Positions 10,216 to 57,309 of a stretch of 64,000 nt of DNA are shown here, piece by piece. This stretch comes from a virus. The notes beneath the pieces were generated by a model. That model was not told the origin of the DNA. It searched no databases and saw only the letters and a list, made by a program, of their open reading frames with translations. The first letter of the stretch is position 1. Every line of letters begins with the position of its first letter. Made by a program: the position numbers and the translations under genes. The stretch is taken from the IMG/VR virus record IMGVR_UViG_3300046170_000470; one strand, written 5' to 3'.

Positions 10216-10495
10216 TAGCGCTCCTTCATTAAGAAGAAATTTATTTAAACAAATACATGAAATAGTCTTCCATGGTAAAGGTGGATATGACTATGACACA
10301 ATTTACCATATGCCTATATGGTTAAGGAAGTTTACTTTTTCTGAAATAGATAAATTCTATACTAAAGAAAAAGAAACTATTGAAAACAAAAATACTTCAG
10401 GAAGTAAAAATCTTATTAACCCTGATGGTACAGTTAATACCCCTGAATTTATGAAAGCTTCTCAAGACTACAAGGGTAAAACAAGTTATAAGTAG
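10196..10495 (+). CDS. +1-frame extension of the chaperone (FFGLT...QIHEIVFHGKGGY...MPIWLRKF)
   Basis: Frame is open from the T7 run at 10195-10201, about 38 codons upstream of the first ATG at 10310. Confidence 0.6.
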   Translation, partial: FFGLTSDSAPSLRRNLFKQIHEIVFHGKGGYDYDTIYHMPIWLRKFTFSEIDKFYTKEKETIENKNTSGSKNLINPDGTVNTPEFMKASQDYKGKTSYK

Positions 10496-10520
10496 CAATA
10501 TTTATAACATATAGTTTACT

Positions 10521-12908: not shown

Positions 12909-12934
12909 TCTAATATTTATAACAAAATAAAATT

Positions 12935-13144
12935 ATGGGACTATTAAATAAATTACAATCTATAGGTTCAGTATTATCAAGAGGTAATGGTTCAACTCCA
13001 TCTACTCCTGATTTTGCTGCTTCTAAATTACACAGAAATTATTCAATTACGGGTACACCTAACATTCAAGGTAAACCTGCTGAATCAGAATTAGATTTGG
13101 ATGGAGAAACTCCCTCTAAATATATGGATAATTTACCTGAATAA
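12935..13144 (+). CDS. Small hypothetical (virion-module) protein
   Basis: ORF directly behind an ATATTTATAA motif. Confidence 0.6.
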   Translation: MGLLNKLQSIGSVLSRGNGSTPSTPDFAASKLHRNYSITGTPNIQGKPAESELDLDGETPSKYMDNLPE

Positions 13145-13155
13145 ATCTTTTATAA

Positions 13156-15037
13156 ATGGGATTAGTTGATTTAAGAACAAACTTAAAATCCCTACGATAC
13201 GGAAAAGATAAAATTGGAGGGGGGTCTAGTAACCAACCATATATCAAAACAGATATACCTGATAGCTTTTCAGACGTAGGACAAACTGGGGGGACCAGAT
13301 GTTATTTTACGAGGTGGAACTTTAGTACCTGGTAGAGCGGCTAGGGATGTTTCTAGATTAGCTCAAATGTTTTTTGATTTTAAATCAATTGGAGGTCCAT
13401 TATTTATAGCTAAACAAAATTTATTATCTCGTACTTCTGTTGCTATAAATGCTTCTAATGCTGAAGGTAATCAAGGTAAAATATTAAATGACGGTATATA
13501 TTTACCTACTTCTACTTTATTGCAAGCTGGTGGAAACGCTATAGGCCTGCATTTAAATAAACAAGGACTTAATCCTTTTATTTTTGACAAAGAAAATATT
13601 GGATATAATAAGATAATGAAACCTTTTATTTCAACTAATGAAAAAAAGGAATATGGTAGGTTAGTAGAACTTACAAATGAAAAATTATCTTTAACTTCTA
13701 CTCAATCCCAAAACCTATTTAAATATTCAGGGGGTCCTAATTCTGTATTAGGGATAGGTAAAACCAAAATTAGAAGATTTTCAAACACCACAGAAGATAG
13801 AAATTATACTGTAGGTAAGTTTTCTTTTAATAAACCCGCAGAAAATGTTCCTAGTGACTTAATTCCTAGAGATCCTAATCTTGCAGAATTATCATCAGGA
13901 GGAGACGTAAATACCACCCCCATAAAAGGATTTTACAAACCAAGTAAATATGTAAATTTAAGAGATGGAAAGTTATTAATTCCTATAGATCATCAAAAGT
14001 TTTTAGGGGTATCACCTCTTTATGCTTCTTTATTTCCTGAATCCCAAGGAAAATTAAAAGAAGGGTGGGTTCAAAATAATGTAGGAAATGGTTTAGAAGA
14101 CAAATATAGACCAAATAGATATAATAAACCCTCACAGGAAAACCCAACTATTCAAGAAGATTTTAGAACTAAAAGTGATGATCCTAAAACTTCTTCCTTT
14201 AGATTAGATTATAGTGGGGGAGATGCTAAAAATATAGAACAAAGAGTCGGTTTAGGAAATCCTGGTAAGAAAAAAACTAGAGAAGAATTAGCTAATTACC
14301 AAAAAGGTTTAGGAGAATTAGATAAAGTTAACTCATTAAGACTATACAAATCAGAAACAGTTACTTCTAACCCCGAAAAAAACGATTTAGTCAAATTTAG
14401 AATTGGAATTATTCAAAATGATGACCCATCAGAAAAGGTATTTATACATTTTAGAGCGTTTTTAGATTCTATGTCTGATGATTATAGCGCAGATTGGACA
14501 TCTGATAAATTAATGGGTAGAGGAGAAAATTTTTATAGATATAATGGGTTTGATAGAAAAATTTCATTAGGTTGGACAGTAGTAGCTCAATCTAAAGATG
14601 AATTAATTCCAATGTATCAAAAATTAAATTATTTAGCTTCAACTTTAGCCCCTGATTATTCTAAAAATATAGGGTACATGAGAGGAAATCTAGCAACTCT
14701 AACAGTTGGTGGGTATTTATATGAACAACCTGGAATTATTACAGGTTTATCTTATAGTGTTCCTGAAGAATCACCTTGGGAAATAGGTATACCAGCAAAA
14801 GGTGGAGCAGATCCAGACAACCCAGAATTTAAATCCGATAAATCAGTAAAAGAAATGCCCCATATGATTAAAGTATCTGGGTTTAACTTTATACCAATTC
14901 ACGAATTTGTCCCAAGAACACAACAGAATAGATATCTTGGAAAAGATGGAAGTTTAAGTAAATTTGGTAAAGAAAGATATATATCTTTAAATAATGGGTA
15001 TAATAATAATTATGATGGTGTAAACTATATTAAATAA
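13156..15037 (+). CDS. Baseplate/tail-tube initiator-like protein (one apparent insertion in G6 run 13288-13293)
   Basis: ATG at 13156 reads MGLVDLRTNLKSL and joins ORF 13367-15037 after removing one G; C-terminal FRAF...GRGENFYRYNGFDR...KLNYLAS..PDY tube-like domain. Confidence 0.6.
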
Positions 15038-18608: not shown

Positions 18609-18609
18609 T

Positions 18610-19279
18610 ATGTACTATCCCTAAATCTCAAATAATAGAAAATCAAAAAACCAATGGGGGAGAACTCCAAAATTCTTCAACCCAACAAGATTATAAAGGA
18701 GCCTATTACCAAACATCAGATGGGTCTTTTTATTCGGGTAAAAACCCCCAAGATAGACCATCTTTCCCATTAACCCCTATTTCCCAAAATGATAACCCTA
18801 TTACTAACCCTAATAATATCACCCCCCCAGATACAGTATCTAGAAAATTTGTAGATCCTACATCAGAACCTACATCCAATAATTACTTTATAATAGATGA
18901 AAATTATTATTCATCTAAAAATATCCCTGAAGATAGAGGTGAAGCACCTAGGAAACCTAAATTTACCCTAAACACACCATCTCTTATTGATTACCAAAAT
19001 GGATATTTTACTAGATATTTTGTTAAAAAAATAAATGATAACTTATATTTAGAAGTAAATAAAAAAGAATACAATTTATTTAAAAAAACAGATCAAACCG
19101 TCCAATTTAACCTTTATATTCCAATAGAGATTACCTGGAATTTAATGGGAGATAAAATAGAAGTATTTAATAAGAATAAAACAATTGTTTCTTTAAAAGA
19201 ACAAAAAGAAAATTTACCCGGATTTACTTTATCATTTAAAAATAAATTTGATAAATATTATAAAACTGTTGGAGACTAA
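18610..19279 (+). CDS. Hypothetical virion-module protein (one apparent insertion at CCC 18619-18621; absent from ORF track)
   Basis: MYYPKSQI...TNGGE start; frame stays open to TAA at 19279 after removing one C. Confidence 0.6.
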
Positions 19280-19315
19280 ACAAATTCTTCATATATTAGG
19301 GTAAAATAAGGTTAT

Positions 19316-21032: not shown

Positions 21033-21064
21033 TTTGGCTCCCCAAATTTAAGTTCGTATATTAG
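21033..21064 (+). promoter_or_regulatory. Bacteroidota sigma70-type promoter (TTTG-N20-TATATTAG)
   Basis: GTTTGGCTCCCC...TTCGTATATTAG; near-identical copy at 37567-37599. Confidence 0.8.
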
Positions 21065-21105: not shown

Positions 21106-21945
21106 ATGGATTTATCAATGCTTAAACAGAAATTGGATACCCTCCAATCAAAACCACAGGGTGGTCAAAAGACCGATTACACAACCATTTTTTGGAGACC
21201 TACAGTAGGTAAACAACAAATTAGAATTGTACCATCTGCGTTCAATTCATCTAACCCATTTACAGAACTTAAGTTCTATTATGGTATTACAAATAAGGTT
21301 ATGATTTCACCACTTAATTTTGATGAAAAAGACCCTATTGCTTTATTTGCTCAAAAACTTCGTGAAGGAGAGTATAATAAAGAGAATTATGTACTTGCTA
21401 AAAAGCTAGATGCTAAAACACGTACTTTTGTTCCCGTTGTAGTACGTGGAGAAGAAGATAAAGGTGTGCGACTATGGCAATTTGGAAAACAAGTATATGA
21501 AGAATTACTTGCACTTGCTGTAGATGATGAAATTGGAGATTATACTGATATTGTAAATGGCCGAGACATTACAGTAGAAACAGTAGGACCAGAATCAACT
21601 GGTACTCCTTACAATAAATCATCAGTGCGTGTTAGACTAAAAACAACTTCACTTAGTGAAGATGCTTCATTAGTAGAAAAATGGACAAGTGAGCAACCTA
21701 ACCCAACAGATGGTTTGTTTAAACGTTATTCATTTGATGAAATGAAATCTGCTCTTGAAAAATGGTTATCACCAGAAGAAGATTCAGAAGAAGTAGTAGC
21801 TGCTCCAGTAGCCCCATCAACATCAACCTCAAATAACAACTTTAGTTTAGATACTACAAAATCTAAACAAAATAAAGCAGATGCTTTTGATTCAATGTTT
21901 GATGAGGGTAAAAAGGTTAATGAAGTTGATGATCTACCCTTCTAA
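21106..21945 (+). CDS. Single-stranded DNA-binding protein (gp32-like)
   Basis: FWRP..G.Q.IRIVP, VVVRGEE..GV.LWQFGK and acidic DDLPF tail. Confidence 0.8.
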   Translation: MDLSMLKQKLDTLQSKPQGGQKTDYTTIFWRPTVGKQQIRIVPSAFNSSNPFTELKFYYGITNKVMISPLNFDEKDPIALFAQKLREGEYNKENYVLAKKLDAKTRTFVPVVVRGEEDKGVRLWQFGKQVYEELLALAVDDEIGDYTDIVNGRDITVETVGPESTGTPYNKSSVRVRLKTTSLSEDASLVEKWTSEQPNPTDGLFKRYSFDEMKSALEKWLSPEEDSEEVVAAPVAPSTSTSNNNFSLDTTKSKQNKADAFDSMFDEGKKVNEVDDLPF

Positions 21946-26452: not shown

Positions 26453-26455
26453 AAT

Positions 26456-28174
26456 ATGGAAAACAACGCATTACAAGCAGATTATACAAATTGGGAAGCA
26501 GGTAAAAGACTATCCAGAATGGATGGATGAAATTTCTTTAGCAACAATTTCTAAGGGTTATTTATTACCTGGAGAAGATGTTAAAAAAGCTTATAGACGA
26601 GTTGCAAATGCAGCTGCTATGAGACTTAAAAAAACCAGAGCTATCTAATAAATTTTTTAAAATTATGTGGAATGGTTGGTTAGGGTTAGCATCACCTGTA
26701 TTATCAAATATGGGGACTGATCGTGGTTTACCTATTTCTTGTTTTGGTGTTGATACGCCCTGATTCAATACGTGGAATTGGTTTAACTAACGCAGAACTA
26801 ATGAAATTAACCGCCTCTGGTGGTGGTGTAGGTATATCACTATCTCGTATTAGAGAACGTGGAACAGGAATTACAGGAAATGGGAAATCTGAAGGTGTAG
26901 TTCCATGGGCTAAAATATTTGATTCTTCAATTATTGCTACTAACCAAGGAAATGTTAGAAGAGGAGCAGCATCTGTTAATTTAGATATAGAACATGGGGA
27001 TATAGAGGAATTCTTACAAATTCGTAGACCAAAGGGTGACCCAAATAGACAATGTTTAAATTTACACCAATGTGTTGTTGTAGGAGATTCATTTATGAGA
27101 AAACTAGAAGCAAGAGACCCTGAAGCAATGAATAGATGGGCTACTGTTTTAAAATCAAGAATGGAAACAGGTGAACCTTATATAATGTACAAGGACAATG
27201 TTAACAAGGATAACCCTATAGCTTATAGACTAAACAATTTAGAAGTATCTATGACTAATATTTGTTCTGAAATTACTTTATTTACAGATGAAGAACATTC
27301 ATTTATTTGTTGTTTATCTTCTATGAATTTATCAAAATACGAAGAATGGAAAGACACAGATGCTGTTGAATTAGCTACTTGGTTTTTAGATGGTGTAATG
27401 CAAGAATTTATTGATAAATCTGCTGGTAAAGATTCATTACAAAGAACTTATAACCATGCTCGTAAAGGACGTGCTTTAGGTTTAGGTGTAATGGGTTGGC
27501 ATTCATTCCTACAACAAAAAGGATTACCATTTAATTCAATTGCTTCTACAGCACATACCCATAATATATTTAATGATATTAGAGGTAAAGCAGAAAAAGC
27601 ATCTATGGCTTTAGCTCAAGAATATGGAGAACCTTTATGGTGTAGAGGAACAGGTATGAGAAATACCCACTTACTAGCAGTAGCCCCAACAGTATCTAAT
27701 TCAGTTATTTGTGGTGGGATTAGTGCTGGTATTGAACCCTTACCCGCTAACATTTATACATTTAATGGTGCAAAAGGTACTTTTATTAGAAAAAACAAAG
27801 TACTACAGTCTATTTTAGCTGAAAAAGGAGAAGATAAAGATAAATGGTGGGACCAAATGTTAGAACAAGATGGTTCAGCTCAAGGTTTACCAGATAATAT
27901 TTTATCTCCTGAAGAAAAAGAATTATTTTTAACTTTCCCTGAAATTAATCAATTAGAATTGGTACGTCAAGCAGCCATTAGACAACGTTATATTGATCAA
28001 ACCCAATCTTTAAATTTGTCATTTGATGTAAATGATTCACCAAAATGGATTAATCAAGTACATTTAGAAGGATGGAAGTTAGGTATTAAAACATTTTATT
28101 ATTTAAGAACTGACAGTGTAATTAAAGGAGATTTAGGTTCTCGTATGGCTGATTGTGTTAGCTGTGATGGGTAG
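26456..28174 (+). CDS. nrdA: Ribonucleotide reductase class Ia alpha subunit (three apparent 1-nt insertions near 26505, 26630 and 26759)
   Basis: Restored ASPVLSN.G..RGLPISCF; GGGVG, TNICSEI, APTVSNS, KTFYYLR and C-terminal CVSCDG. Confidence 0.92.
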
Positions 28175-28198
28175 TAATCCTAAATATTTTTATTTTAA

Positions 28199-28225
28199 GA
28201 GAGCGCAATAGCGCTCTTTTTTCTT
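28199..28225 (+). terminator. Terminator after nrdA
   Basis: GAGAGCGC-AATA-GCGCTCT followed by T-tract. Confidence 0.85.
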
Positions 28226-28248
28226 ATATGTATTATTGAAGTATAATC

Positions 28249-28271
28249 GAATATGGGCGGCAACCCTATTC
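28249..28271 (+). promoter_or_regulatory. Leader hairpin with CGGCAA loop (copy 1)
   Basis: GAATA(T)GGG-CGGCAA-CCCTATTC. Confidence 0.6.
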
Positions 28272-28319
28272 AATTCTAAAGTTTTTACAAACGTTTTTTT
28301 ATTAACGAAAAAGTTGAAT

Positions 28320-28793
28320 ATGAGATCAATATGTTTCATTTTTGCCTTAATATTAGGCATCAATGCGTATAGTCAAGAAACTATACACATACAAGAAGTT
28401 ACCAATAACATAGTTATGGGGCCATTTGCAGGTAACCGTAACCTGGCTTTTGGTGTACAAAATATCTTAGAAGAAATTATTCAAGATAAAGACTATTATT
28501 TAGATGATAATTCACCAAGAAATATTAAAGTCGAACTACTATACTTTGACGTAAAGAAAAATAACATGCAATTGGCGGCATATGGGCGTAAAGTCGATAT
28601 TACCCAAATTATTGCAGGTGCAAGGTTAATAGTAGATGGAAAAGTAGTAAAAGAAGTAATTGCTAAAGGAACTTCTAAGTCTATTTCAACATCTACTTTA
28701 ATTATAGATGATGGAGGAAAATTTTCTCAAGCTGGTGTATCCTCTGCACTTAAAAAAGTTTGTGAACAACTTATAAATAAATTAAAATTATAA
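28320..28793 (+). CDS. Exported CsgG/FlgO-superfamily-like protein (short paralogue)
   Basis: Probable start ATG 28320 gives signal peptide MRSICFIFALILGINAYS|Q; shares NLAFGVQNILEE and KFSQAGVSSALKK with 31482 (RVGLGLTNI, KFNQSSIGTSTKK). Confidence 0.55.
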   Translation: MRSICFIFALILGINAYSQETIHIQEVTNNIVMGPFAGNRNLAFGVQNILEEIIQDKDYYLDDNSPRNIKVELLYFDVKKNNMQLAAYGRKVDITQIIAGARLIVDGKVVKEVIAKGTSKSISTSTLIIDDGGKFSQAGVSSALKKVCEQLINKLKL

Positions 28794-30487
28794 TGAAAAA
28801 ACTATTATTTTTATTACTTTTACCTTTTGGGCTACTAGCTCAACAAGGTTATTTAAGCCATAGCTACATTGATGGTGATTCAAATGGATTTGTAGTTGGG
28901 CAAGAGATCACTGTTAAGTTTGAAGGTTTACAAGGCAGTGGAATGACACCTGATCGTGTTCATTTCGACTTTGAATGGAACAACAAGCTTCTAGAGTATG
29001 TTTCACATACCTTTAACCCAACCTCAGGTTTACCCTCTGATGCTCAAAATTCATGGACAATGTGGAACGGGTATAGATTTAATCCCCTTACTTTTTATGC
29101 CGGGGTAGCAGTTGCCGAATCAGATTTAGATCTACAGTATGATCAAGGATGGTTAAATAGAGGAGAAGGATCTTATTCTACAGTTTCAGATTGGTCAGTT
29201 GCAAGAGTAATTATACAATCCTCTTCTGATTTACCTTTATCTACAGAATGGATTTATGTTAAATTTAAAATTAAAGATAGACAGGGAACCGGATATGATA
29301 ACTACAATAACGTTACAGATCTAAACTTTGCTGGCTTTGAAGACATAAGCACAAGCTCAGGATTATATGATGTAAATGCTGGTACAGAAAATATTTCGTT
29401 AGCTAATGTAAGTGGAGTAAATGCAGGTAATGTTACTATTAATTTAAATTCTGCTGCTAAATCTCAATATGCTACTGACTTTACTTATGCTATTTATACT
29501 GCTGATGGGGTAAATGGTAGAACAGGAAATGCAATTGAAACAGGTAATTTTGATGCAAACGGTCAGGTAATTACCAGTAACCTAATTGTAGATGAAAAAT
29601 ATTATGTAGAAATAAAAGTAAGTGACCAAGCCACTTGGTTAGATGATGTATTAACTATTACAGATGCTTTTATTATATTTAAACAAGGTAATGCTACTGG
29701 AGCAAGTGGACCTGGGGATACATCTTCTCAAAACACATTCGATTATTCTCTACAGTATCTTATAGGAGAATTAAACAATTCAGGAAACATTACCCCTGCA
29801 GATGCTTATCAAGCTTTAGGTCATGTGCAAGGAGTAGAAGGTTTAAGTGAATGGTTTACTAATTCAACCAATGGGTCTAAAAATGTATGGGGGAGAGTAG
29901 AGCAATTAGGTGTATCAACTAATGATTATTATTTCGGACAAAAATATATTATTGAACCTACAGATGCTGTTAAATCATTTAACTTTGGTCATGCTTTAAT
30001 TGGTGATGTAGATTTCTCACATGGGTATGCTCCTACAGCTGAAGGAAGCTCTTTTTCAACTACTTCTCAAGCACAATCAAGAATGAGTGTAACATCAAGA
30101 GCATTAAGCCAAGCAGTTGAAAGTAATTTAGATGTTGTTTCTGAATTAATAGATGGTAAAGTACACTTTACTATTAATTTACAAGAAGAAGGAGTAGTAG
30201 GTACTCAATTTAATATAAATTATGATGATACTATTTTAACTTTAGATAATGTAATTTTTGATACTGGAAATACAATGACAAATTTTGCAAATCATAAACA
30301 GCAACAAGCTAAAGTAAATATAGGGTCTTTAGACCAATCAGGAGAAGTATCAATTAAAAAAGGGAATGCTTATAAATTAATATTTACTCCAAACGAAACA
30401 TTACAAAACACATCAGGATTAGTTACCTTTAAGTTAACTGAAGGAATTAAAGCTGATGGGCAAAAAGTTCAATTTATAATTCAATAA
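28793..30487 (+). CDS. Exported cohesin/dockerin-like domain protein
   Basis: Signal peptide ...GLLA|QQ; cohesin-like segments VGQEITVKF...FDFEWNNKLLEYVS and GTQFNINYDDTILTL; dockerin-like Ca loops DDVLTITDAF and GELNNSGNITPADAY. Confidence 0.6.
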   Translation: MKKLLFLLLLPFGLLAQQGYLSHSYIDGDSNGFVVGQEITVKFEGLQGSGMTPDRVHFDFEWNNKLLEYVSHTFNPTSGLPSDAQNSWTMWNGYRFNPLTFYAGVAVAESDLDLQYDQGWLNRGEGSYSTVSDWSVARVIIQSSSDLPLSTEWIYVKFKIKDRQGTGYDNYNNVTDLNFAGFEDISTSSGLYDVNAGTENISLANVSGVNAGNVTINLNSAAKSQYATDFTYAIYTADGVNGRTGNAIETGNFDANGQVITSNLIVDEKYYVEIKVSDQATWLDDVLTITDAFIIFKQGNATGASGPGDTSSQNTFDYSLQYLIGELNNSGNITPADAYQALGHVQGVEGLSEWFTNSTNGSKNVWGRVEQLGVSTNDYYFGQKYIIEPTDAVKSFNFGHALIGDVDFSHGYAPTAEGSSFSTTSQAQSRMSVTSRALSQAVESNLDVVSELIDGKVHFTINLQEEGVVGTQFNINYDDTILTLDNVIFDTGNTMTNFANHKQQQAKVNIGSLDQSGEVSIKKGNAYKLIFTPNETLQNTSGLVTFKLTEGIKADGQKVQFIIQ

Positions 30488-30490
30488 AAA

Positions 30491-30868
30491 ATGAAAAAAT
30501 TATTATCAATATTAGCATTACTTTTAGTATTAGGATGCACCCAAGATGAAGAGTTTATTATAATAGATGAAAACCAAGAAGTACCTGAAGCTTTATTTAT
30601 TGAAGACTTAGTGGGAATTAAATTATCTAGTTCTATTGTTTCTGATAGAGTAGCCATGAATGTTAAATTACCATCAGATGGAGATTATAGAGTAAAAATT
30701 AGACACAGTATGACTAATGAGTTAATTTCCCAAGAAAAACTTACAGGTAAAGAAGGAGACAATATTTTAAAAGTGTATGTTAATACTTTAGAAAATAGTT
30801 CATATAAGTTAGAATTAACTAAAGAAAATCATACAATAGTAGGAGTAACATTATTTTCAAAATTTTAA
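30491..30868 (+). CDS. Lipoprotein resembling a stand-alone T9SS C-terminal sorting domain
   Basis: Lipobox LVLG|C with acidic residues after Cys; YRVKI...GKEGDNILKVYVNTLENSSYKLEL resembles the Por-secretion tail pattern. Confidence 0.55.
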   Translation: MKKLLSILALLLVLGCTQDEEFIIIDENQEVPEALFIEDLVGIKLSSSIVSDRVAMNVKLPSDGDYRVKIRHSMTNELISQEKLTGKEGDNILKVYVNTLENSSYKLELTKENHTIVGVTLFSKF

Positions 30869-30871
30869 AAA

Positions 30872-31150
30872 ATGAGTGAAGAAAAAGGAGGATTTTTTAG
30901 CCAAATTAAAAATCAAATAATCACAACAATTGGTCTTATTATTACGGCTGCAGGTGGTTTAGTAATAACCAATATGGAAGCTATATTTGGTGTAGGTGAA
31001 GAAATAGTAGTAGAACAGCCTATGATGGAACAAACTATTAACTTTCCTGAAGCTACTAAAGATACCATAGTAATTTCTAAAACTATAGTAATTCCTCCTA
31101 AAAAAGAAAAAACCGAAACAGAAAAAAGAAAAGAAGAATTTGACTGGTAG
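30872..31150 (+). CDS. Single-pass membrane protein
   Basis: IITTIGLIITAAGGLVIT TM segment; charged tail ending in W. Confidence 0.7.
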   Translation: MSEEKGGFFSQIKNQIITTIGLIITAAGGLVITNMEAIFGVGEEIVVEQPMMEQTINFPEATKDTIVISKTIVIPPKKEKTETEKRKEEFDW

Positions 31151-31155
31151 AAACA

Positions 31156-31181
31156 AGAAACCAGGCGGCAACCTGGTTTCT
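31156..31181 (+). promoter_or_regulatory. Leader hairpin with CGGCAA loop (copy 2)
   Basis: AGAAACCAGG-CGGCAA-CCTGGTTTCT perfect 10-bp stem. Confidence 0.7.
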
Positions 31182-31359
31182 CTTATTCTGATGTCAAATT
31201 AAAATTGAATGAAGTATAACAGTTAAAATGACAACCATGAATTATTTATCACAACGTACAAAGAAATTGTGGCTAAGCCAAGCAATTCTTAGTATTCTTA
31301 GTTTTTACATATTAGAACAAGATGGTCTTATCAATAAAATAGTTGAAGTTATTGCAAAA

Positions 31360-31479
31360 ATGCTTGTAACTTTTTTATTTGTACTTGCAGTATCAGGTAT
31401 AACAAAATTAATTTTTGAATTGATAACTAACCCATCCCAATTTAGCAATGCTACTTTTGGTGTGTTTGACTATCTGTAA
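31360..31479 (+). CDS. Small hydrophobic protein (39 aa; start could be further upstream)
   Basis: MLVTFLFVLAVSGITKLIFELITNPSQFSNATFGVFDYL; ends 2 nt before the next gene. Confidence 0.5.
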   Translation: MLVTFLFVLAVSGITKLIFELITNPSQFSNATFGVFDYL

Positions 31480-31481
31480 AA

Positions 31482-32192
31482 ATGAAACATCTTATCGTAT
31501 TTTTACTTGGGCTAAATGTAGCATTTGGTCAAGTACTAGGCAAAACAACTACTGAAGATTATACAGCTGGATTTGAATCAAGAGAATCTATCTGGTCTAT
31601 TCCAGAATATAACGGAGACCCAGTTACTGTTGCTCTCCTTAATATTGGAGTTAGTGATGAAGTACTATCACAATACCCGGAACTAGGAGATTACCGTGTA
31701 GGGTTAGGTCTTACCAATATAACAGTAGCATTCTTAGATGAAACATTTAGATTTGAATTCGTTGAAACTAAAGACGAAATTAAAAATAGAATGGTTTCTC
31801 AATATAAAGCCTCCCAGAAAGGATTTACTGCAAACCAAATTAATATTAAAGGTAAGATTATGCTTGCTAAATATTTTTGTTATATAGAAGTATATGACTT
31901 TTCTATTTCGGAAGATGAAAATATTAGCTTAAAAGATGGAATTAAAAGTAACTTAGTTACTAGGTTAGGTCTTCAAGTTAAGATGGTCGATGCTGAAACA
32001 GGCCTGTACATGACAGGCTCAGGTTTAGGTAAAGCTACAACGACAAGAGAAATGACTCTATTAAATGATCAAAATTTAGAAGAAATCAAATTCAACCAGT
32101 CTTCAATTGGTACATCAACCAAGAAAGCTTTAGAAACAGCAGTAGCTAAAGTAGTAAAAAGAATGATACGTAAACGTATCTTTGACCATTAA
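31482..32192 (+). CDS. Exported CsgG/HfaB-family-like protein
   Basis: Signal peptide ...VAFG|Q; RFEFVE, IEVYDFS and RLGLQVKMVDAETG....GSGLG typical of the CsgG fold. Confidence 0.7.
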   Translation: MKHLIVFLLGLNVAFGQVLGKTTTEDYTAGFESRESIWSIPEYNGDPVTVALLNIGVSDEVLSQYPELGDYRVGLGLTNITVAFLDETFRFEFVETKDEIKNRMVSQYKASQKGFTANQINIKGKIMLAKYFCYIEVYDFSISEDENISLKDGIKSNLVTRLGLQVKMVDAETGLYMTGSGLGKATTTREMTLLNDQNLEEIKFNQSSIGTSTKKALETAVAKVVKRMIRKRIFDH

Positions 32193-34310: not shown

Positions 34311-34916
34311 ATGAGCTGTTATACAAGGCAACAAATTAAAGAAGCTGTTTTATCTAAAGGATATAGATGGTTTGAAAGTGGAAACTATAATTTAAATATT
34401 GTAGGAGTTAGAAACTCAGAAACCCATGGTAAAGTTACTAATAAATTTGATGATTGTCTTACAGTATCTTATAATGTAGATGGTGGAGAAAAATTCCATT
34501 GCTTTGCTGCTACTACAGACCCAGGATCCCATTGGGAGAAAAATTTATTAAATAAAGATGGGGTTGCAATTTTAGTTCCTGGGCAATACAGAGGTTCACA
34601 TAAAATTAGAAAACATCAGGGTAAATATGAAGCTCTATGTCAAAAGAAAGAAGTAAAAGTTTATAGAGATAACAACAAAGATGGGGTTTATGATATGTTA
34701 GAAGAAAACATTCATGAAGGTATTTATGGTATTAATATTCATAAAGCCGGCTCTAGAATAAATGGATCAACCCAAATAGATAAATGGTCCGCAGGTTGTC
34801 AGGTATTTTCCAAAGAATCAGATTTTAATCAATTAATGGATTTAGCGTATAAAGCTAAAGATTTGTATGGTAATTCATTTACTTATACATTAATTGAATC
34901 AAAAGATTTAGTTTAA
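34311..34916 (+). CDS. Putative endolysin with L,D-transpeptidase-like His/Cys motif
   Basis: GINIHKAG...WSAGCQV; lies between membrane genes and holin. Confidence 0.6.
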   Translation: MSCYTRQQIKEAVLSKGYRWFESGNYNLNIVGVRNSETHGKVTNKFDDCLTVSYNVDGGEKFHCFAATTDPGSHWEKNLLNKDGVAILVPGQYRGSHKIRKHQGKYEALCQKKEVKVYRDNNKDGVYDMLEENIHEGIYGINIHKAGSRINGSTQIDKWSAGCQVFSKESDFNQLMDLAYKAKDLYGNSFTYTLIESKDLV

Positions 34917-34918
34917 AA

Positions 34919-35335
34919 ATGAAAACAACACAATCTATCATAGCAATAACAAGTATGTCACTAGGATTTATATGTTCCTATTTTATGGAACTTACAATGC
35001 AAAATGCAGAGCAATATCTAGCTATTACTACTTTAGTATTTGCTGATGGTTTTTTTGGCATAATAGCGGGTATTAAAAGGGAAGGATTTAAAACCTACAA
35101 AGCAATAAAAATATTAAGGACCCTAGTTTTTTGGGTTATTATGTTAACTCTAATACTAGTAATAGAAAAAAGTATACCCGGAGCTAGTTGGTTAAGTGAA
35201 ACTATGCTTATGCCTTTGGTAATATTTCAATTAATAAGTACTATAAAAAATGCATCCATGGCTGGATTCATTAAAGCAGATATTGTCAATCAAATATTAG
35301 ATAGTATTGATAAACATAAGGGCACTAGAAAATAG
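34919..35335 (+). CDS. Phage holin family protein
   Basis: Three TM segments; D.FFGIIAG...F motif and QLISTIKNA..AG pattern. Confidence 0.65.
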   Translation: MKTTQSIIAITSMSLGFICSYFMELTMQNAEQYLAITTLVFADGFFGIIAGIKREGFKTYKAIKILRTLVFWVIMLTLILVIEKSIPGASWLSETMLMPLVIFQLISTIKNASMAGFIKADIVNQILDSIDKHKGTRK

Positions 35336-35372
35336 GTTGCCCCCTTCCTACTTTTTTATTATATTTATAACC

Positions 35373-35711
35373 ATGTATAGATACAACGCAAAATTAGACC
35401 GAGTTGTTGACGGAGATACTGTCGATGCTTTAGTAGACTTAGGATTTGATACTTGGAAAAAAGTAAGAGTTCGAATGATGGGGATGAATGCTCCTGAATC
35501 CCGCACACGAGATTTAGAAGAAAAAAAACGTGGACTAGCTGCTAAAGCAAGATTAATTAAATTATTAGAAGAGGGGGATTTTATTTTACAATCCCATGGG
35601 GTTGGAAAATATGGTAGATGTTTAGGGACTATATTTGTAAAAGATGTAGATGTAAATAAAACTTTAATTAATGAAGGACACGCAACAGAATACTTTGGGG
35701 GTGCTAGGTAA
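35373..35711 (+). CDS. Thermonuclease (SNase-like)
   Basis: RVVDGDT, RVRMMGMNAPE, GKYGRCLG and N..LINEGHA motifs. Confidence 0.88.
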   Translation: MYRYNAKLDRVVDGDTVDALVDLGFDTWKKVRVRMMGMNAPESRTRDLEEKKRGLAAKARLIKLLEEGDFILQSHGVGKYGRCLGTIFVKDVDVNKTLINEGHATEYFGGAR

Positions 35712-39793: not shown

Positions 39794-39795
39794 TT

Positions 39796-39990
39796 ATGGC
39801 AAAGTTAACAAGAAATGTAAATTATTGTAATTACAGATGGGAAGAATATGTGCTAACAGAAGAAGAATTAGCACAATGGAAAACGGGTGATGAAGATCTC
39901 CAACAAGAAATCATAGATAATGCAGATTGGGACTTAGTAAGAGATAAACCAATTGATGATTATAGTGAACCAGAATTTGTAGAAGAATAA
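39796..39990 (+). CDS. Small acidic hypothetical protein
   Basis: ORF track; tight packing with neighbours. Confidence 0.6.
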   Translation: MAKLTRNVNYCNYRWEEYVLTEEELAQWKTGDEDLQQEIIDNADWDLVRDKPIDDYSEPEFVEE

Positions 39991-39994
39991 TAAT

Positions 39995-40180
39995 ATGGCA
40001 GAATTTATAAGACACGCACTAGGACTTTGTGGAGAACACTATCATCCAAATTTATGGACACTTCTTATAGGAGGAGTTGGATTTTCAACTATTTTTTCGT
40101 ATGTTCGATCATATATAAAATGTAAATTTAATCAAGCGTTAGCCTATACGCGAAATACCTGGCAAAAATTAAATAAGTAA
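39995..40180 (+). CDS. Small membrane protein (GLCGEHYHP motif)
   Basis: ORF track; one TM segment. Confidence 0.55.
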   Translation: MAEFIRHALGLCGEHYHPNLWTLLIGGVGFSTIFSYVRSYIKCKFNQALAYTRNTWQKLNK

Positions 40181-40183
40181 ATT

Positions 40184-50548: not shown

Positions 50549-50644
50549 TATATGTATAATAGAACATAATATTGTAGAGCTAGGGCATGCTGTTATGTTT
50601 AAATTAAATTAACCGAGAGCTACGGCCTCACAAAACTAAATGAT

Positions 50645-57120: not shown

Positions 57121-57309
57121 ATGAGCGCAAAAAAAGATATGACACTAACGAGTGTTAAAGTCAAAAGCGATTTATTCGAGAATTTTAAAATTGAATGTGT
57201 AAAACGTAAATTTTCCTTCCAAAAACTTGCCGATCGAGCTTTGTTTTTGTATCTTACAGATGAAGATTTTCGTAAATCAATTACTAATCAAACTAATCTC
57301 GAATTATAA
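57121..57309 (+). CDS. Ribbon-helix-helix-like small regulator
   Basis: LTSVKV...LFENFK......SFQKLADRALFLY. Confidence 0.55.
   Translation: MSAKKDMTLTSVKVKSDLFENFKIECVKRKFSFQKLADRALFLYLTDEDFRKSITNQTNLEL

Follow-up and report, generated by a model that had tools for sequence, protein, structure and literature searches.

Paired hairpins with a shared, co-varying loop at two boundaries of an envelope/lysis gene cluster in an Immutovirus-like flavobacterial phage

The stretch of DNA analyzed here (the window) comprises 64,000 nucleotides of the IMG/VR virus record IMGVR_UViG_3300046170_000470, and every open reading frame (ORF) in it lies on the + strand. Two hairpins, S1 (28249-28271) and S2 (31156-31181), bracket four + strand genes (28320-31150), which encode a secreted protein of 157 amino acids (aa) with an LptE/CsgG fold, a 564-aa protein with a cohesin-like domain, a 125-aa lipoprotein and a 92-aa membrane protein (30872-31150). 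Directly downstream of S2 lies a two-helix membrane ORF of 80 aa (31237-31479, + strand), followed by the gene of a very conserved 236-aa secreted protein (31482-32192, + strand), and this cluster of secreted, lipoprotein and membrane genes continues as far as an endolysin-like gene (34311-34916), behind which come a holin-like gene (34919-35335) and then an SNase-like gene. A replication module is found directly upstream of the hairpin region; the replication genes of the window encode SSB (21106-21945), a UvsX-like recombinase, an exonuclease, a DnaB-like helicase and both ribonucleotide reductase subunits. Tail sheath and tape measure represent the structural genes, and a clamp loader, GroES and Hsp20 follow farther along. 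The nearest isolate, Flavobacterium phage vB_FspM_immuto (Immutovirus, 160 kb; immuto hereafter), has the same gene cluster, with proteins ~49-55% identical. The source of the window is a large Immutovirus-like, uncultured marine flavobacterial myophage, and therefore what an earlier note on this DNA called an envelope operon is part of such a phage. Marine Flavobacteriia are abundant and ecologically important, and to our knowledge almost nothing is known about gene regulation in their phages.

The earlier note pointed to a decamer, GGCGGCAACC, at the tips of two hairpins with a CGGCAA loop and unrelated stems, and both counting and folding agree with it. Exact copies occur only at 28256-28265 and 31164-31173, and a single copy with one mismatch lies on the minus strand at 35335; with up to one mismatch allowed, 0.28 copies are expected and three were reached in 0 of 100 shuffles. 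S1 has its loop at 28258-28263 and a stem of 8 pairs with one bulged T (GAATA-t-GGG / CCC-TATTC; -7.8 kcal/mol, z = -2.0), while S2, which begins 5 nt past a stop codon, has its loop at 31166-31171 and 10 perfect pairs (AGAAACCAGG / CCTGGTTTCT; -15.2 kcal/mol, z = -5.3). CGGCAA occurs three times on the + strand of the window, and these loops are two of the three. A covariance model built from both sites, run with filters off, matches S1 and S2 only in the 64 kb, and five related records (contigs of 35-77 kb) likewise carry just two copies each. The mismatched decamer at 35335 was rejected as a third copy: at 35325-35375 there is a small terminator-like hairpin (TAGG...CCTA and a T-run), then a late promoter motif, ATATTTATAAC, which ends 1 nt before the ATG of the SNase-like gene (35373). 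If that motif is a promoter, the mRNA of the SNase-like gene would be leaderless or nearly so.

The element matches no RNA family in Rfam. When 27500-32000 was compared with Rfam (cmscan, both strands, E up to 10), only chance matches were returned, all far under their gathering scores; RsaH (22 bits, gathering score 50, E = 2.4) covers S2, L20_leader (19 bits, gathering score 58.7) lies over a neighboring terminator, and the remaining three are elsewhere. The literature on promoters and stem-loops of Cellulophaga or Flavobacterium phages yielded nothing relevant. Partners for the loop were also sought within the window. TTGCCG at 29112, a candidate antisense or kissing partner within the operon, was rejected as it is not kept in loop-bearing relatives, and no tRNA genes that could serve as loop partners were found in the 64 kb.

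At S1, the stop codon of the reductase gene is followed by the canonical intrinsic terminator T1 (28197-28224, + strand), the promoter-like motif ATATGTATTA with a second GTATAAT (28226-28247, + strand), S1 itself, a conserved leader (28272-28319, + strand) and the ATG at 28320. The doubled motif derives from an 11-nt tandem duplication of promoter-like GTATAAT[TC]GAA, seen when the window or locus L008 is compared with locus L001, and the duplication yields TGAAGTATAA. In an alignment of 18 loci, the conserved leader consists of AAGTTTTT, ACGTTTTTTT and TAAC with an A-rich block, TAAC being at 28303-28306, 13 nt before the ATG. At S2, the stop codon of the 92-aa ORF (31150) is followed by 5 nt, the hairpin, ~25 variable nt, a highly conserved block (GAAGTATAACAGTTAAAATGACAACC, 31207-31236, + strand) that resembles the late-promoter or initiation-region consensus TATAACAAAATAAAAT, and the ATG at 31237, with the 236-aa gene coming later. 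The block carries TAAC at 31217-31220, 16 nt before the ATG. Each hairpin stands 31-35 nt upstream of TAAC plus an A-rich block, with the first start codon 57-66 nt downstream of the hairpin. No linear element of the boxA kind is conserved beside both hairpins in the locus alignment, and CTCTTA/CTCTATTC occurs behind S2 in many loci, not all. Two words that had been taken as common to both leaders, TGAAGTATAA and AGTTTTTACA, are at chance frequency (14 and 15 copies in the window at up to one mismatch vs. ~16 expected); moreover, TGAAGTATAA stands upstream of the hairpin at S1 and downstream at S2, where it is part of the conserved block, and the second AGTTTTTACA (31300) falls within the conserved ORF 31237-31479. 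The interval between the reductase gene and the promoter/hairpin S1 is an insertion hot spot, with inserts of 4 kb in L001 (L001:1818-5854), ~0.45 kb in L006-L010 and ~0.9 kb in L013, and immuto has two nuclease genes plus other genes at this position.

Two promoter-like motifs recur in the window. ATAT[TG]TAT[AT]A occurs 14 times on the + strand and 0 times on the minus strand, and most of its copies stand 3-30 nt ahead of a start codon, those of sheath and tape measure among them; it precedes structural or late genes (e.g., at 1121, 6199, 8517, 10498, 12913, 33810, 35361, 45432 and 50550). The second motif, TCGTATAT(T), occurs 11 times on the + strand and twice on the minus strand and precedes replication and other genes (e.g., at 21054, 37589, 43576, 49438, 51101, 53618 and 57079). 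Most copies of both are intergenic, with a start codon 3-30 nt downstream. The two motifs may represent two promoter classes of the phage, a late type and a middle type.

To follow the hairpins beyond the window, loci were collected with the 157-aa protein (17 viral contigs) and with the 236-aa protein (80 metagenome contigs). About 25 related contigs of viral or metagenomic origin retain S1 and S2, with stems altered in a compensatory manner, and this holds for relatives whose 236-aa protein is at least roughly 88% identical; in farther relatives, immuto included, neither hairpin is present and the genes abut. The contigs on which the comparison of loop types rests are 21-48% complete. Across clades, S1 and S2 are gained or lost together. 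Among 23 distinct S2 variants, 91.7% of cells are paired, double-sided changes are found at 8 of 11 pairs, and the covariation score is unmatched by any shuffle. For S1, with 15 distinct variants, 75.8% of cells are paired and double-sided changes are found at 7 of 8 pairs. Pairing collapses for S1 and S2 alike when the registers are slid. The loop is constant over stems that have been fully turned over, as opposed to the loops of T1, taken as a control, which vary freely (AATA, CAAG, AAAG, TTCG). The GGCGG of the decamer is not conserved, relatives carrying TGCGGCAACA, TGCTGCAACA or AGTTGCAGTT, and the loop alone is kept. The conservation and covariation that the earlier note proposed to look for in homologous leaders are thus present at both sites.

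A more distant clade without S1 (L095, L099, L111, L093, L110) carries another shared word, TAAATCGCAGTAAT or CTCGCAGTGAT, at the same two places, i.e., just before the ATG of the 157-aa gene and just after the stop codon of the 92-aa gene (L095:1352 and 4203; L099:984 and 3763); at the place of S2 the word is then followed by a hairpin with a CTGTAA loop. It appears that more than one lineage carries a joint mark at this pair of places.

The loops at the two sites change together. Among 19 distinct loci with both hairpins, the loops are concordant in 18, in three states: CGGCAA at both sites in 10 loci, CTGCAA in 6 and TTGCAG in 2. The last state differs by C1 to T and A6 to G at both sites, which is either an isosteric change from C.A to U.G or the exact reverse complement of CTGCAA. 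The CTGCAA phages are not monophyletic and are scattered among the CGGCAA phages on three gene trees; the loop state changes 3-5 times on the trees, and the independent contrasts all go in the same direction at both sites. Since a tree-based sign test has no power with only two well-supported independent contrasts (P = 0.5), a linkage test took its place. Among 2,823 variable nucleotide columns in eight surrounding genes, only four match the S1 partition and three the S2 partition with at most one mismatch, so that just 0.1% of the columns follow a loop partition as closely as the two loops follow one another. The loop variants CUGCAA and UUGCAG resemble the tRNA-Cys anticodon loop minus one base, and immuto has genes for tRNA-Cys, Ser, Glu and Gln right behind its version of the cluster (NC_055915.1, 20246-21325; locus L123); the resemblance may be a coincidence.

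As the concordance of the loops exceeds that of the surrounding polymorphisms, a shared loop-reading factor is likely. No amino-acid column in the alignments of the cluster proteins separates the loop types, apart from one signal-peptide column, and a specificity determinant among the cluster's own proteins was rejected accordingly. The simplest reading of these alignments is a common trans-acting reader that would be encoded elsewhere and whose specificity would switch along with both sites. Three points weigh against tight coupling through such a reader: S2 is present without S1 in L048, one locus (L047) is discordant, so the coupling is breakable, and the sign test has no power. On balance, we consider it probable that both hairpins have a function and that one factor reads the two.

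The pattern of non-Watson-Crick pairs was used to ask which strand folds. In the inner ten pairs of S2, the 23 variants contain 17 A.C or C.A cells on the + strand and no G.U, and the same cells are G.T wobbles on the minus strand. They represent at least six independent events, at pairs 3, 4, 6 and 9. The minus (template) strand is the more stable in all 23 variants, by a mean of 3.8 kcal/mol. T1, which served as a + strand control, behaves in the opposite way: its variants in 24 loci contain 19 G.U when read on the + strand, against 0 on the minus strand, and the + strand fold is the more stable by a mean of 1.8 kcal/mol. This contrast suggests that selection at S2 has kept the template strand paired and not the mRNA. 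At the third S2 pair from the loop (31163/31174), where the window has A-T, 9 of the 23 variants carry a mismatch, C.A in some and A.C in others. We interpret this mismatch as a minus-strand G.T wobble; alternatively, it may be an A+.C pair that functions in RNA.

The earlier note allowed that S2 might be a plain terminator, and the sequence argues otherwise: there is no U-run, the wobbles are on the wrong strand and the loop is conserved. The 9-nt tails of S2 contain a mean of 3.6 T (+ strand) or 4.4 T (minus strand), compared with T6-8 at the real terminators of this phage. The tail in the window is CTTATTCTG, with no T-run on either side, and S1 is also without one. A simple terminator scan listed S2 solely under a lenient rule (5 T in 8). 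S2 is not a canonical terminator in either direction. The earlier note's suggestion of an undescribed cis element is supported by the conserved loop, the free and compensated stems, the lack of an Rfam match and the co-variation of the loops; as far as it placed the element in the mRNA, it does not fit S2, at which the substitutions favor the minus strand.

These observations can be arranged into a mechanism. In an AT-rich genome, S1 and S2 would display a single GC-rich loop, C-G/T-G-C-A-A, usually closed by G-C, and a single trans-acting factor would read both sites through this loop, its specificity shifting at both together among related phages. The template-strand hairpin at S2 would be extruded from the duplex and then bound by protein. 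The hairpins would precede two successive late transcription units of the envelope/lysis cluster, and the pair would most probably set the level or timing of these units. We infer the factor, DNA as the folded molecule and the effect on transcription from the patterns described above. Because template-strand pairing is preserved at S2 while the mRNA-sense strand carries A.C mismatches, a protein-bound extruded DNA hairpin is favored over an mRNA element as the control of the two units, though only tentatively and at somewhat less than an even chance. The broader proposition is more tentative still: that a Bacteroidota myophage lineage, apparently without a single-subunit RNA polymerase, may use extruded template-strand DNA hairpins as cis signals, in which a six-base loop, as a specificity code co-evolving with a hairpin-reading protein, would mark two late envelope/lysis units.

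Several observations speak against a DNA hairpin. No more than about 6-9 independent substitutions underlie the A.C cells of S2, 8 variants have G.U on the + strand at its outermost pair, and S1 is ambiguous in its strand preference (5 G.U vs. 5 A.C). No single-subunit RNA polymerase (PF00940) was found in immuto or four related records, which is a weak negative as the control genomes gave none either; immuto has no polymerase or sigma factor annotated in 8-120 kb, and we know of no transcription start sites for these phages.

The second-ranked account, a doubtful one, has the element act at the mRNA level, which suits S1 but not the substitutions at S2. A loop-specific RNA-binding protein, similar to lambda N on boxB or to a NusG paralogue, would bind S1 in the 5' leader and S2 at an internal operon boundary and control read-through or mRNA stability. 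Every gene is on the + strand, a strictly + stranded promoter-like motif stands just before S1, and the G.U pairs of S1 on the + strand include its closing pair in L008 and L060; lambdoid nut sites, too, come as two per genome, with free stems and a loop particular to the lineage. Conversely, all 17 inner non-Watson-Crick pairs of S2 are A.C on the + strand, the opposite of T1, and neither hairpin has a conserved boxA-like element beside it. In several relatives S1 begins just 2-5 nt after the promoter-like motif, and therefore part of its 5' arm may not be transcribed. A NusG paralogue of the phage was rejected as the reader, since none of five related viral records, of which two are about complete, contains the domain (PF02357), in a search whose control was found in 11 of 14 genomes.

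The genes on both sides bear on a further account. The earlier note had each leader precede a CsgG-like gene and the operon arise by duplication of a leader-plus-csgG unit, and neither idea is supported. S2 follows the stop codon of ORF 30872-31150, and the 80-aa membrane ORF intervenes before the 236-aa gene, the second of the supposed CsgG-like genes. Pfam CsgG matches neither the 157-aa nor the 236-aa protein at E up to 10, sequence searches of the flanking proteins against solved structures gave nothing, and homology between the two proteins is undetectable (BLASTP E = 3.8; hhalign probability 1.8%). The structural model of the 157-aa protein (pLDDT 74) does match the LptE/PelC/CsgG/FlgT lipoprotein fold, with LptE ranked first and CsgG sixth; that of the 236-aa protein (pLDDT 50) is too poor for a structure search, and its beta-alpha-beta3-alpha order is the same as in the 157-aa protein. 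Conservation of start codons places the real start of the 80-aa ORF at ATG 31237, not 31228. This ORF is hypervariable, with tblastn identities of 43-98% vs. ~80-99% for neighbor genes, and its conservation is confined to the first ~8 codons and the leader. In L004, the three genes before S2 are 47-60% identical and the flanks 91-98%. On the evidence of the hypervariable ORF and the diverged L004 genes, S2 sits at a recombination boundary.

It is thus conceivable, though improbable, that the hairpins are single-stranded-DNA signals for replication or recombination, such as a priming site or origin, an HUH-type nicking site or a crossover point resembling the PeSLs of T4-like phages. The minus-strand preference of S2, the replication module directly upstream and the match of the sites to mosaic boundaries (0.4-4 kb inserts before S1, the variable ORF after S2, the L004 pattern) would agree with this, as would the nature of PeSLs, which are composites of promoter and stem-loop that flank variable genes (PMC2839356). 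Yet the four bracketed genes are present in all relatives, at the same place in those without both hairpins, and therefore the hairpins do not define a mobile cassette. An origin, moreover, should still be present in relatives with as much as 86% identity; PeSLs are numerous and have conserved stems, in contrast to the two copies and free stems here, and neither a recombinase nor an HUH gene serving such a signal was seen in the window.

It is very doubtful that the two hairpins have just the ordinary structural roles of a 5' stabilizer and a weak terminator or insulator and owe their identical loops to descent, to 2.9-kb linkage or to chance. Repeated 10-mers are common in the 64-kb window, the sites are closely linked and the tree-based test is without power, all of which would suit such an account; it leaves unexplained why the loop is invariant over completely turned-over stems when control loops at T1 vary freely, why S2 has no U-tract, and why the sites have three loop states in common with a link stronger than 99.9% of intervening polymorphisms. 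The least probable account, in which S2 is the terminator or 3' end of a minus-strand antisense RNA over the start of the 80-aa ORF and S1 an unrelated 5' hairpin, takes up the better fold of S2 on the minus strand, where TTTTTTA or TTTTTAC follows in many relatives, but the T tail is missing in the window and several other variants, immuto is transcribed nearly wholly in one direction, the shared and co-varying loop is left unexplained, and a minus-strand promoter feeding such an RNA into S2 was rejected, as ATAT[TG]TAT[AT]A is confined to the + strand (0 of 14 on minus), the two minus-strand matches of the middle type fit chance and no conserved host-type motif is found near S2.

Other features of the window were noted in passing. 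The first ~100 codons of the gene for the large subunit of ribonucleotide reductase are split over three reading frames (26453-26763), with breaks near A-runs, which are either indel errors of the assembly or real frameshifts. The apparent intergenic gaps at 1966-2292, 10216-10520, 12909-13366, 18609-19315 and 39794-40183 look like coding sequence too. A 62-aa ORF (57121-57309) has a pattern like that of ribbon-helix-helix proteins (a beta strand, then two helices) without a Pfam match, and the site before it bears both promoter-like motifs fused (TTTTCGTATATATGTATAC); it is a candidate for a small DNA-binding regulator. Upstream of the Hsp20 gene, an unusually long leader of 96 nt (50549-50644) stands behind a late-type promoter motif and contains the GC-rich inverted repeats GAGAGCTACGGCCTC.

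Whichever molecule folds, the analysis yields a cis element that is compact and supported by phylogeny and whose three loop alleles change in step at its two sites, as well as two classes of + stranded promoter-like motifs for the phage. It also yields a strand-asymmetry test, G.U vs. A.C with a neighboring terminator as control, which separates RNA-level from DNA-level hairpins by sequence. Under either the DNA or the mRNA reading, the reader of the loop becomes findable, through association across genomes or by pull-down.

Among known systems, intrinsic terminators are comparable to S2 in that it is a stable, GC-containing hairpin right after a stop codon; S2 differs from them in having no U-run, a conserved loop and wobbles on the wrong strand. 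The PeSLs of T4-like phages also combine a stem-loop with a promoter-like motif between genes, at boundaries of gene swapping, but they are numerous, contain early promoters of the sigma-70 kind and serve as terminators through GGGG...CCCC stems, which are relatively conserved (PMC2839356, PMC4122927). Here, by contrast, there are two copies with a conserved loop, the stems of S1 and S2 are unrelated and free, no terminator tail is present, and the promoter-like motifs are specific to the phage. The RfaH ops and Bacteroidota UpxY elements, invoked by the earlier note, are likewise short GC-rich elements in the leaders of surface-structure operons, and ops also acts as a small DNA hairpin, formed on the non-template strand. 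This analogy does not extend further, for the ops sequence GGCGGTAG is absent, GGCGG is not kept among relatives, and the five related phage records have no NusG domain.

Closer parallels exist with phages in which a hairpin is read through its loop. Lambda nut sites control read-through of downstream genes, and their boxB is an mRNA element with an adjacent boxA. As with boxB in nutL and nutR, each phage has one loop at two sites, the loop is specific to the lineage, and co-evolution with a binding protein is presumed; unlike boxB, the hairpins have no conserved boxA, S2 is degraded on the mRNA strand, and neither an N-like protein nor a Nus-type partner was identified. If the mRNA reading holds, this would be the first nut-like system in Bacteroidota phages.

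The early promoters of phage N4 offer the comparison for a DNA hairpin. They are template-strand DNA hairpins that the virion RNA polymerase reads, and a hairpin promoter of this type would be expected to have its start site about 11 nt from the loop. The present element differs from these promoters in its 6-nt loop and 8-11 bp stems, compared with the 3-nt loop, 5-7 bp stems and conserved stem bases of N4, which counts against a DNA hairpin. It also belongs to a contractile-tailed Immutovirus relative and not a schitovirus, and no polymerase of the N4 or T7 type was found in relatives (a weak negative). In N4, the promoters have a GC-rich center and inverted repeats whose other bases are free, and the hairpin is extruded from supercoiled DNA; the template-strand hairpin is stable, whereas the weaker non-template hairpin is melted by SSB (PMC4496689). 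The phages studied here are similar in having few copies per genome, a GC-rich conserved center and pairing that is kept with free stem bases, upstream of transcription units. At S2 the template-strand hairpin is the stable one, as in N4, and S1 shares the conserved center and free stems but has no strand bias. Should the element indeed act as a DNA hairpin, a mechanism linked until now to N4-like phages would reach further, and recognition of DNA in hairpin form would not be peculiar to them.

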